A stretch of 64,000 bases of DNA, taken from the NCBI GenBank assembly GCA_964016885.1, contig OZ024758.1, positions 10,850,001-10,914,000 on the forward strand, in the 5' to 3' direction. A model generated the notes under the pieces. That model did not search any database. It had not been told where the DNA came from and saw only the letters and a program-made list of their open reading frames with translations. Origin of the DNA: Eledone cirrhosa (taxonomy: Eukaryota). The position numbers and the translations under genes are program-made. Position 1 is the first letter of the stretch. Every line of letters begins with the position of its first letter. Positions 24,533 to 48,582 of this stretch are shown piece by piece.

Positions 24533-24587
24533 ACTGCCTGAAGAGGTCACAGCCAAAGATGGCTGTCACCGAAATATATATAGCAGT
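24533..24587 (+). ncRNA. Minimal (PLE-type) hammerhead ribozyme
   Basis: ACTGC-CTGAAGA-GGTcACAGCCA(AAGA)TGGCTGTcACC-GAAA-TATATA-TA^GCAGT, followed directly by AATAAA (24588-24593). Stem I is 5 bp, stem II is 10 bp and stem III is palindromic. Confidence 0.85.
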
Positions 24588-41481: not shown

Positions 41482-41513
<32 letters not shown>

Positions 41514-41514
<1 letters not shown>

Positions 41515-41899
41515 ATAATTGTTTCTACTTTTGGCACAAGGCCAGCAAATACCCAGTACATTACTGGTACTTTTATTTTATCGACCCCGTAAGGATGAAA
41601 GGCAAAGTTAACCTCGGCGGGATTTGAACTCAGAATGGCAAGGGCCGTAACTCTATGCTAGAAAGCATGGCGTCCGACTCTCTACCGATACTGCCAATCC
41701 ACCACCCTTATATATCAATAATTGTTTCTACTTTAGGCACAAGGCCAGCTATTACCCCAGTGCATTACTGGTACTTTATTTTATCGACCCCCGTAAGGAT
41801 GAAAGGCAAAGTCAACCTCGGCAGGATCTGAACTCAGATCGTAAAGGGACGTAACTATGCTGGAAAGCATGGCGTCCGACCCTCTACCGATACTGCCAA
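41514..41899 (-). mobile_element. Two tandem full-length SINE copies
   Basis: Copies at 41514-41708 and 41717-41899. Confidence 0.85.

Positions 41900-46607: not shown

Positions 46608-46611
<4 letters not shown>
46345..46611. mobile_element. Family C element (inverted HHR part plus direct 3' end)
   Basis: Same architecture as 6248-6533, flanked by long (TA)n tracts. Confidence 0.7.
46411..46555 (-). ncRNA. Hammerhead ribozyme with long stem II (family C, second copy)
   Basis: Minus strand: TGTTT-CTGAAGA-[~115-nt hairpin]-GAAAC-GATC-GTT^AAATA. Homologous to 6306-6439. Confidence 0.7.
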
Positions 46612-46659
<48 letters not shown>

Positions 46660-47049
46660 ATATAGTAAGAAACACAGTAAACCGTGTGTCCAAAATTACA
46701 AGGGTTGAACAACCACATATGCTTGAAATATTTAACCAAGAAACAGACAGAATGACAAAATGAAAATAAAAATATATTATCATAATTATACAAACCGCCT
46801 CAATAACCATTATATCTCTCGGACAGATTATCCCTAATCTGTTTCGCCCTGAGTGTGTTTGTAACAGATAATCCTGGGCTTCATCAGCGAGAGATTGCGA
46901 TTAAATGCCACAAACACTATTTGCCAACGTACACACAGAAAGATGAATTCATCACCTCGTGCTTCGCCAGTCAAACGTGGTAAGCGCGTATTGAACAGAA
47001 ATAACAGTCCAACACGCACAACTTAATAGCTCAACTTGTAAGGGAGCAG

Positions 47050-47052
<3 letters not shown>
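46660..47052 (-). mobile_element. HHR-bearing (TA)n-inserted element (PLE-like terminus)
   Basis: A unique ~390-bp segment between TA tracts that contains the 46814-46895 hammerhead. Confidence 0.6.
46814..46895 (-). ncRNA. Type I hammerhead ribozyme, complete core
   Basis: Minus strand reads ATCTCTCG-CTGATGA-A-GCCC(26 nt)GGGC-GAAAC-AGATTA-GGGA-TAATCT-GTC^CGAGAGAT. This gives an 8-bp stem I, a GC-rich stem II, a stable stem III and a GUC triplet. Predicted cleavage is between 46822 and 46821. Confidence 0.9.
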
Positions 47053-47098
<46 letters not shown>

Positions 47099-47099
47099 T

Positions 47100-47238
47100 A
47101 GTCCAGAATTAGCCGTCGAAACGGCTTGAGCTCAGCCGTCGGGGTCCTACTCGTTCCTATTACCCACTCTACTGCCCTAAGTATTGAGTACTTTGGTGCG
47201 TTATGGTCCACCTGGTTCCTTACCACATTTCCTTCATT
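47100..47238 (+). mobile_element. Family A element, 5'-truncated without fold-back
   Basis: Begins at GTCCAGAATTAGCCGTCGAAAC and runs to the shared 3' end. TA-flanked. Confidence 0.75.
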
Positions 47239-47920: not shown

Positions 47921-48316
47921 AATAATTGTCTCTACCTTGGCACAAGGCCAGCAATTATCTCAGTGTATAATAATTGTTTCTACGTTTGGCACAAGGCCAG
48001 CAATTATCCCAGTGTATAAGAATTGTTTCTACGTTTGGCACAAGGCCAGCAATTATCTCAGTGTATAAGAATTGTTTCTACGTTTGGCACAAGGCCAGCA
48101 ATTATCTCAGTGTATAAGAATTGTTTCTACGTTTGGCACAAGGCCAGCAATTATCCCAGTGTATAATAATTGTTTCTACGTTTGGCACAAGGCCAGCAAT
48201 TATCCCAGTACATTACTGGTACTTTATTTTATCGACCCCCCCCCCCCCGTAAGAATGAAAGGCAAAGTTAACCTCGGCGGGATTTGAACTCAGTTCATAA
48301 AGGGACGTAACTCTAT
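47921..48316 (-). mobile_element. SINE with a tandemly amplified 49-bp 3' tail
   Basis: The unit AATTGTTTCTACGTTTGGCACAAGGCCAGCAATTATCYCAGTGTATAAK occurs six times, and the last copy continues into the SINE body. Confidence 0.85.
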
Positions 48317-48582
48317 GATTTGAATAATTCAGACTTAAATGACTTGGGTAAAAAAGGCGGAATCGTCATGACTTGACTTCTTTAAGTCATATGTCTGCTC
48401 GACCAACGATGAAAGACTGTTAAACCAATTATAGCTAGAAGCAGGCGAAATTATGAACATTCGTATGATGTAGGGAAGCGAGTGATAAGGGAGGTAACTC
48501 AGCAATATAAACGCATATATTTCCACTACACTAAATAATCCATTTTGCTCATCAACCTCTCTTTCTTTCTCTCAGCCTATAT

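Follow-up and report, generated by a model that had tools for sequence, protein, structure and literature searches.

Introduction

What is an apparently complete self-cleaving ribozyme doing in a part of a 3.0-Gb animal genome that is rich in AT and dense in microsatellites: is it able to cut by itself, what keeps its sequence in shape, and which enzyme has carried it there? These questions are raised by positions 46814..46895 on the minus strand of the window, i.e., the whole 64,000-nt stretch of Eledone cirrhosa DNA that was analysed, for which an earlier note, made from the sequence alone, had described a hammerhead motif.

An intact type I hammerhead on the minus strand

The motif has every part of an intact type I hammerhead, namely the CUGANGA core, GAAA, an NUH triplet and three helices, with stem I open, and its cut is predicted 3' of C 46822, which is the C17 of the GUC site. 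Read along the minus strand, it comprises an 8-bp stem I (ATCTCTCG at 46895-46888 paired with CGAGAGAT at 46821-46814), the core CUGAUGA (CTGATGA as DNA; 46881..46887), an extra nucleotide between A9 and G10.1 (position 9.1; an A at 46880 in the window copy), stem II (46846..46879; GCCC 46879-46876 paired with GGGC 46849-46846, with a 26-nt loop II), GAAA (46845-46842) and an 8-bp stem III (ACAGATTA at 46842-46835 paired with TAATCTGT at 46830-46823, loop GGGA), which together with the GAAA spans 46823..46845. The complete core, the stems of 8, 4 and 8 bp, the 26-nt loop II and the GUC site had all been listed in the earlier note and are confirmed on the minus strand; the note mentioned neither the extra A 46880 nor membership in a mobile repeat family.

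Folding returned the hammerhead as the minimum-energy structure of both the 82-mer and a 91-mer (-23.5 kcal/mol), and in the isolated motif its 20 helix pairs have probabilities of 0.65-1.0, with 18 of them at 0.9 or above; the fold has a z of -2.49, and 5 of 200 shuffles of the isolated motif folded equally well. A descriptor scan found one strong and one loose hammerhead match in the real window, and no equally strong motif, along with 16 loose matches, in 200 window shuffles. No hammerhead match at the gathering level was returned for the motif by the Rfam search, the best one being Hammerhead_HH9 (46796-46905; 15.5 bits against a gathering value of 52, E 0.66), and the remaining Rfam E-value matches were dismissed as low-scoring or as due to chance similarity with TA repeats; the Rfam hammerhead models presumably contain neither the long loop II nor the 9.1 base. 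Judging by the predicted fold, the trimmed ribozyme is very likely to cut as a monomer.

The ribozyme belongs to a young repeat family

The window copy, a solo copy of 397 nt (46656..47052, minus strand) and thus shorter than one full unit, starts at an end-site termed B and stops at another termed A (46656..46669, minus strand), the latter being a short TA run and the presumed start of reverse transcription, and it is bordered by (TA)n at its 3' end (46611..46664, the target) and at its 5' end (47052..47097). It has a single ribozyme and is devoid of the 77-nt tail described below, so that it would permit at most one cut of a read-through transcript and, alone, cuts out no circle; its nearest relatives (L003 and L004) are 99.2% identical to it (3 mismatches in 397). 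No coding frame with a Pfam match lies over it, and none of the 100 scanned frames (from 161 candidates in the window, where short exons would escape) passed a Pfam cut-off, the one sub-threshold match being inside a tandem repeat; no host gene turned up near the window copy, which, as a solo insertion in a microsatellite, is nothing out of the ordinary.

Genome-wide, with exact patterns going from tighter to looser, those for young-type ribozymes matched 228 and 231 times, one with a looser core 577 times and the stem III pattern 922 times; reversed control patterns gave no match, and 98 of the first 100 matches listed for the looser core pattern belong to the family. The ribozyme region was 98-100% identical in the 40 scored matches out of 1343 candidates. 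Among 128 sampled ribozymes, 62 are identical to that of the window, by which measure of sequence the family is young, and 112 are intact, a share that overstates the family because loci entered the sample by virtue of a best match or an intact pattern. Tandem copies give a 472-nt unit, with periods of 424-487 nt across subfamilies, and the repeat unit as such is about 450-490 nt long, non-coding, of GC 0.36 and without LTRs. Head-to-tail arrays, reaching 7 ribozyme units per insertion, account for about 16 of 85 insertions by our own count, and older subfamilies are likewise tandem (L068, L133). A separate case is the head-to-tail array of L067 (4335-6530), where four of five ribozymes have a shared change that breaks stem II, in alternation, which suggests that a two-unit block was amplified locally after insertion.

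In sequence terms the family has the structure that defines a non-LTR retrozyme, circles and expression being predicted. Like metazoan non-LTR retrozymes (PMC7229834; bioRxiv 10.64898/2026.07.22.740005), it is protein-free and low in GC, has one type I hammerhead, occurs as monomers, dimers and multimers, and appears dependent on Penelope-like elements, as has been proposed for them; it differs in the 8-bp stem III, the extra nucleotide 9.1 and the length of its unit, which compares with circles of 170-400 nt in metazoan retrozymes and lies inside the 51-972 nt given in the preprint. An open reading frame with RT and GIY-YIG, by which an autonomous Penelope-like element is recognised, was found within the unit in none of the loci examined.

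Also within the unit is a conserved box, GCACGAGGTGA (46952..46962, minus strand; conservation 0.96), a candidate internal promoter element. The same 11-mer is found near the 5' start of an unrelated 4.5-kb non-LTR retrotransposon (L171-L180; RT and zinc-binding domain, positioned after (TAA)n and often tandem, with 761 matches to its 5' 15-mer), and what the two have in common is perhaps a promoter element or chance.

Conservation of the ribozyme across subfamilies

In 74 copies from 10 clusters, the core, stems and loop II are conserved at 0.89-1.0 as opposed to 0.80-0.85 for the remaining unit, with values of 0.96 for the core, 1.0 for GAAA, 0.99-1.0 for stem III and 0.98-0.99 for loop II, loop III (0.65) and the 9.1 base (0.6) being the variable parts. 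The earlier note had made core conservation among paralogs its own test, and the outcome across the 10 clusters bears it out, the core standing at 0.96-1.0 and the remainder at 0.80-0.85. Within 35 aligned copies, stem II is paired in 137 of 140 cells and stem III in 240 of 245 over 7 pairs. Covariation analysis had 93.7% of cells paired and 0 compensatory changes in 21 distinct rows, with the same picture in 35 rows; as no compensatory change occurs in any helix, be it of the leader or of the ribozyme, the support for the helices comes from conservation and not from covariation. Selection seems, on sequence comparison, to keep the core and helices across subfamilies that are about 20-30% apart.

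Stem III is kept at 922 places while its loop changes (GGGA, its inversion TCCC, and others), and the stability of this stem, which the earlier note had set against minimal Penelope-like forms, is real and family-wide. The minimal dimer-dependent class, whose helix III is absent or a palindromic 1-2 bp, was accordingly not matched by the 8-bp stem: in metazoan Penelope hammerheads, which depend on dimers, helix III is minimal and palindromic, whereas the stem seen here resembles that of fungal and protist forms cutting as monomers (PMC4209133).

The 9.1 nucleotide, on the other hand, is a feature of metazoan Penelope ribozymes, in which a base at this position is conserved (PMC4209133); in a viroid ribozyme an A at 9.1 is tolerated, a U helps, and a C or G is harmful (PMC3705267). 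Among the 35 aligned copies it is U in 22, this being the usual letter in older subfamilies, A in 3, C in 1 and G in 1, with two letters in 8. These last eight, having two extra bases between A9 and G10.1, form an older subfamily (L129, L130, L133, L136, L137, L140, L143 and L145).

Insertion ends carry the probable mark of a Penelope-like enzyme

How the repeat has been inserted could be read from 84 mapped loci out of 106, the other 22 being overlapping or duplicated and therefore dropped, which resulted in 85 insertions. A TA run follows 124 of 126 3' ends, and copies stop at two fixed internal sites separated by 77 nt, A at unit position 231 and B at 308. Inverted insertions number 41 out of 85, with ends at A+B in 38, A+A in 1, B+B in 0 and elsewhere in 2; older loci are inverted in 30 of 38 cases (A+B 20, A+A 1, B+B 0, broken or unresolved 9). 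When both ends of an inverted insertion fall on a site, the sites are different in 58 of 60 cases, against about half expected if the ends were independent, and it is these 58 that show the tail of Penelope-like elements, just as the inverted 5'-truncated arms and partial tandems are those expected of such elements.

Targeting of (TA)n has been described for Penelope-like elements, along with partial tandem copies, arms that are inverted and 5'-truncated, and a tail of 30-40 bp at one of the ends; the Hydra families are almost all inserted in (TA)n (PMC8557442). The Poseidon protein nicks and extends both target strands, starting at two internal positions of the RNA between which the tail lies, and a tail between two reverse-transcription start sites is called unique to Penelope-like elements (PMC11167929). 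Since a scar with one site per end is this very tail signature, a non-LTR retrozyme mobilised by a Penelope-like element is the most likely identity of the repeat, and the analogy makes us quite confident of Penelope-like mobilisation. By the same analogy, the simplest reading of the scars would be that one template was twin-primed, once at A and once at B, although a snap-back intermediate resolved at A and B would leave identical ones.

The family has in common with the Hydra clade (PMC8557442) and Poseidon PAc (PMC11167929) the (TA)n or AT-rich targets, the inverted 5'-truncated arms and the two-site tail. It departs from them in encoding no protein, in a tail of 77 nt as compared to 30-40 (about 125 in a Hydra family of the same genome), and in that both end sites hold short TA runs like the target; the ends, moreover, are almost always on different sites, whereas PAc displayed no difference between strands in vitro. 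For retrozymes, no report of inverted arms combined with a two-site tail was found in the texts cited here.

Could the repeat instead be the terminal repeat of an autonomous Penelope-like element, its copies being 5'-truncated pieces? The ribozyme type, tail and inverted arms are indeed those of Penelope terminal repeats, and at least 794 of the 922 stem III sites lie outside the set checked for flanking open reading frames. Upstream, however, the copies run into a previous unit, in none of 121 loci are they joined in register to a shared open reading frame, and older subfamilies (L068, L133) are tandem too; we regard this explanation as very unlikely and keep to that of a mobilised retrozyme.

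The candidate partner enzyme

As for which Penelope-like enzyme is the partner, the Hydra clade is our best guess, held with about even confidence. Of 121 loci, 15 had a Hydra-type frame near a copy, 5 a Poseidon-type and 4 a Neptune-type one, with 0 in the window, the clade names Poseidon and Neptune being ones that we take to apply; so many Penelope-like frames near copies are as expected from the shared target. The name of the Hydra clade follows motifs (PMC8557442), RT and GIY-YIG having been assigned by Pfam. No autonomous partner with the retrozyme's ribozyme or ends was found in the loci examined. In 30 comparisons with six Penelope-like termini (Hydra-, Poseidon- and Neptune-type), the retrozyme ends did not rise above shuffles (best z 1.6), and homology of the end region to Hydra ends, suggestive by eye, was rejected for this reason. 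A Neptune-type partner was considered in view of an 11-12-nt match beside a Neptune-type frame in L064 and likewise rejected, the match having turned out to be the 5' start of the unrelated non-LTR element, after (TAA)n.

In L061 (3117-5345), a chimera occupies one (TA)n run: an inverted Hydra end, 1.3 kb of a Hydra frame, a microhomology junction and retrozyme units running to B. It is a single case, and a later insertion with deletion could also have produced it. The Hydra family concerned has two end sites about 125 nt apart, with one per end in L194, L195 and L198. This family, abundant and young (L182-L204; 1336 candidates, copies 95-97% identical), had no clear hammerhead in the 3' regions inspected with the descriptor. 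Minimal hammerheads of the Penelope type, unlike the one studied here, occur in Hydra- or Poseidon-type 3' regions (L062 6744, L068 9572, L152, the L063 3' region, L154 and L169). A Neptune-type family (L148-L170; 1473 candidates) has a 3' region of about 1 kb of TA/TG microsatellite-like sequence plus a unique end, where the descriptor found no hammerhead.

A leader predicted to compete with the active fold

The earlier note had called the motif probably monomer-active, and as far as the trimmed motif is concerned, the prediction that it folds speaks for this; for the natural context, in which the model leaves stems I and II largely unformed, it may or may not hold. A leader (GUGUUUGUGGCA, 46906..46917, minus strand) is complementary to loop II (46866-46855) over 12 bp, including 2 G-U pairs, which predicts a lock or a pseudoknot. 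Nearer to stem I, UAAUCG (46898..46903, minus strand) may pair with the loop II GAUUA at 46873-46869 (locked; 169 of 175 cells) or with the distal UGGUUA at 46809-46804 (extended stem I; 136 of 140 cells). Given at least 30 nt of natural upstream sequence, the leader pairs with loop II in the folding model, aided by UAAUC:GAUUA, which leaves stem III in place but lowers stems I and II to P 0.01, also in RNA 46930-46780; an RNA starting at 46906 has all three helices back to 0.95. The intact unit folded as a circle is locked, with the leader helix at 0.99.

This strong competitor of the active fold (46917-46906) lies outside the stretch covered by the earlier note, which had suggested a switch between loop II and stem III instead. 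The complementarity behind that suggestion exists (7 bp, ATCTGTT:AACAGAT), but as the main switch it was rejected, the pairing of the stem III 5' strand having P 0.007 in the 82-mer and that of the 3' strand 6e-5.

The locked and active folds are close in energy, 1.8 kcal/mol apart by minimum energy and 3.2 by ensemble, in a model that scores neither pseudoknots nor Mg2+; the leader helix is predicted to form once loop II has been transcribed, and the barrier across the 1.8 kcal/mol gap is estimated at 19.5. The locked fold is the minimum in four of six subfamily representatives, the other two forming no leader helix, and the 8-bp Watson-Crick core of the leader:loop II helix is kept in older subfamilies too, being paired in 266 of 280 cells of the aligned copies, as compared to 97 of 140 for the 4-bp extension. 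From such modelling, we put at roughly even the chances that the leader hairpin leaves most of the precursor and circle uncut for as long as the near-balanced switch is not tipped by Mg2+, by folding kinetics or by a bound protein. As the Poseidon ribozyme cuts only with its protein (PMC11167929), a protein-released lock in the retrozyme would, by analogy, be plausible.

The leader match might, of course, be incidental and the ribozyme per se a plain constitutive monomer, as the earlier note proposed, which we deem improbable. In line with it, the ribozyme is locked by chance with 38 of 300 shuffled flanks from upstream, 163 of 2000 shuffles contain an 8-bp Watson-Crick match, covariation is absent and leader conservation is modest (0.95, a value equalled by 9% of outside 8-mers); a 12-bp match, in contrast, is found in only 8 of 2000 shuffles, and loop II, being conserved like the catalytic core (0.98-0.99), needs some partner.

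Another option is that the 8-bp leader:loop II helix acts as an activating pseudoknot, aligning stems I and II for fast monomer cutting during transcription, and we entertain it as a tentative possibility. About 40% of hammerheads use such a pseudoknot, the breaking of which slows them 20- to over 100-fold (PMC3088659); it is precisely the 8-bp core that is kept in all subfamilies and the extension that is not, the motif is otherwise without an obvious loop-loop contact, and the extended stem I can form. A rough sum (-31.6 for the active fold with both 8-mers free, about -12 for stacking of the duplex and a pseudoknot penalty of +7 to +9) nevertheless places the pseudoknot 4-7 kcal/mol above the locked ensemble (-41.2), and in young copies the match to loop II extends to as many as 17 of 19 leader bases, which is too long for a closed loop. 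The family is similar to pseudoknotted hammerheads in that a loop pairs with the flank beside another stem (PMC3088659), but its helix is 8-12 bp and, in the folding model, competes with stems I and II.

A lock of the kind favoured here recalls plant LTR retrozymes and viroid circles, where the ribozyme is predicted to be sequestered by the complementary strand in the circle (PMC7229834), although their ribozymes are type III rather than type I and the present family has an animal host and no long terminal repeats. Most metazoan circles are, on the contrary, unblocked according to PMC7229834, some mussel ones excepted, as opposed to the self-paired lock predicted for this family.

Proposed life cycle and its implications

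The overall reading to which we incline, somewhat beyond an even chance, is that of an intact hammerhead in a protein-free retrozyme of 450-490 nt, copied by a Penelope-like enzyme into (TA)n, with its cutting gated by the leader. Transcripts of tandem copies, made on the ribozyme strand, would be cleaved at GUC and joined into unit circles, a step that we take to be reasonably probable; the ribozyme would cut as a monomer when trimmed, the leader hairpin keeping precursor and circle mostly uncut. A Penelope-like enzyme would nick both target strands, with reverse transcription from two internal sites producing two arms, one with the tail, as Poseidon does in vitro (PMC11167929). Counting against the overall reading are that only one of nine frog retrozyme dimers cut in vitro (bioRxiv 10.64898/2026.07.22.740005) and that Poseidon insertion in vitro did not require ribozyme cutting (PMC11167929).

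It might also be that uncut linear tandem transcripts move the element, circles not being the template and the ribozyme just riding along or limiting transcript levels, something that we hold to be rather unlikely. Uncut RNA was the main Poseidon substrate in vitro, with no reads ending at the cut site (PMC11167929), and the predicted lock would favour uncut RNA. The apparent selection on core and helices across diverged subfamilies argues the other way, as do the abundant circles from coral, mussel and axolotl retrozymes (PMC7229834), and a circle is the easiest explanation of multi-unit arrays.

Going further than the gated and probably circular retrozyme preferred above, one may imagine that its own conserved lock is released by the Penelope-like protein, which would couple cutting to transposition, and that a Hydra-clade enzyme performs twin priming on a single, probably circular, template, each of the two nicked target strands starting on its own site of the one RNA. 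This combined proposal is speculative and, to our minds, unlikely. If true, it would make the insertions direct genomic evidence of a Hydra-clade enzyme moving retrozymes by twin priming.

A preprint on frogs already derives such elements from Penelope-like terminal repeats, on the basis of co-occurrence and sequence similarity (bioRxiv 10.64898/2026.07.22.740005). To this the present family brings a stem III of 8 bp, a candidate lock within the unit itself and scars of insertion that point to the mechanism. The literature found held no earlier description of such elements in cephalopods, or of tailed, inverted retrozymes, though repeat libraries or supplements could already list the family. 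The class-defining papers, as far as the texts cited here go, leave open which enzyme moves animal retrozymes and how circles avoid self-cutting; a young family with a near-perfect scar of one site per end is a small defined template for pursuing both questions in vitro.

Neighbouring repeats and other hammerheads in the window

The plus strand has another type I hammerhead at 24533-24587, which is of the minimal Penelope kind, with a 5-bp stem I, CUGAAGA, a long stem II and a short palindromic AU stem III, ending near (TA)n; it folds as expected (z -2.68), and copies 90-99% identical to it are present in five loci (L076, L084, L099, L102 and L155). Just downstream of the element, 46552-46410 on the minus strand is hammerhead-like: CUGAAGA and GAAAC enclose a hairpin of about 125 nt (z -6.12), stem III is palindromic and the stem II junction is non-canonical. 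A 97% identical copy of it is present in L184. The element is further flanked by a short repeat with an internal inverted part (47098-47237), seen in about 30 loci. Copies of a short interspersed repeat with a 49-nt tandem expansion were also noted at 41506-41899 and 47924-48320, and this repeat presumably resembles octopod SINEs.
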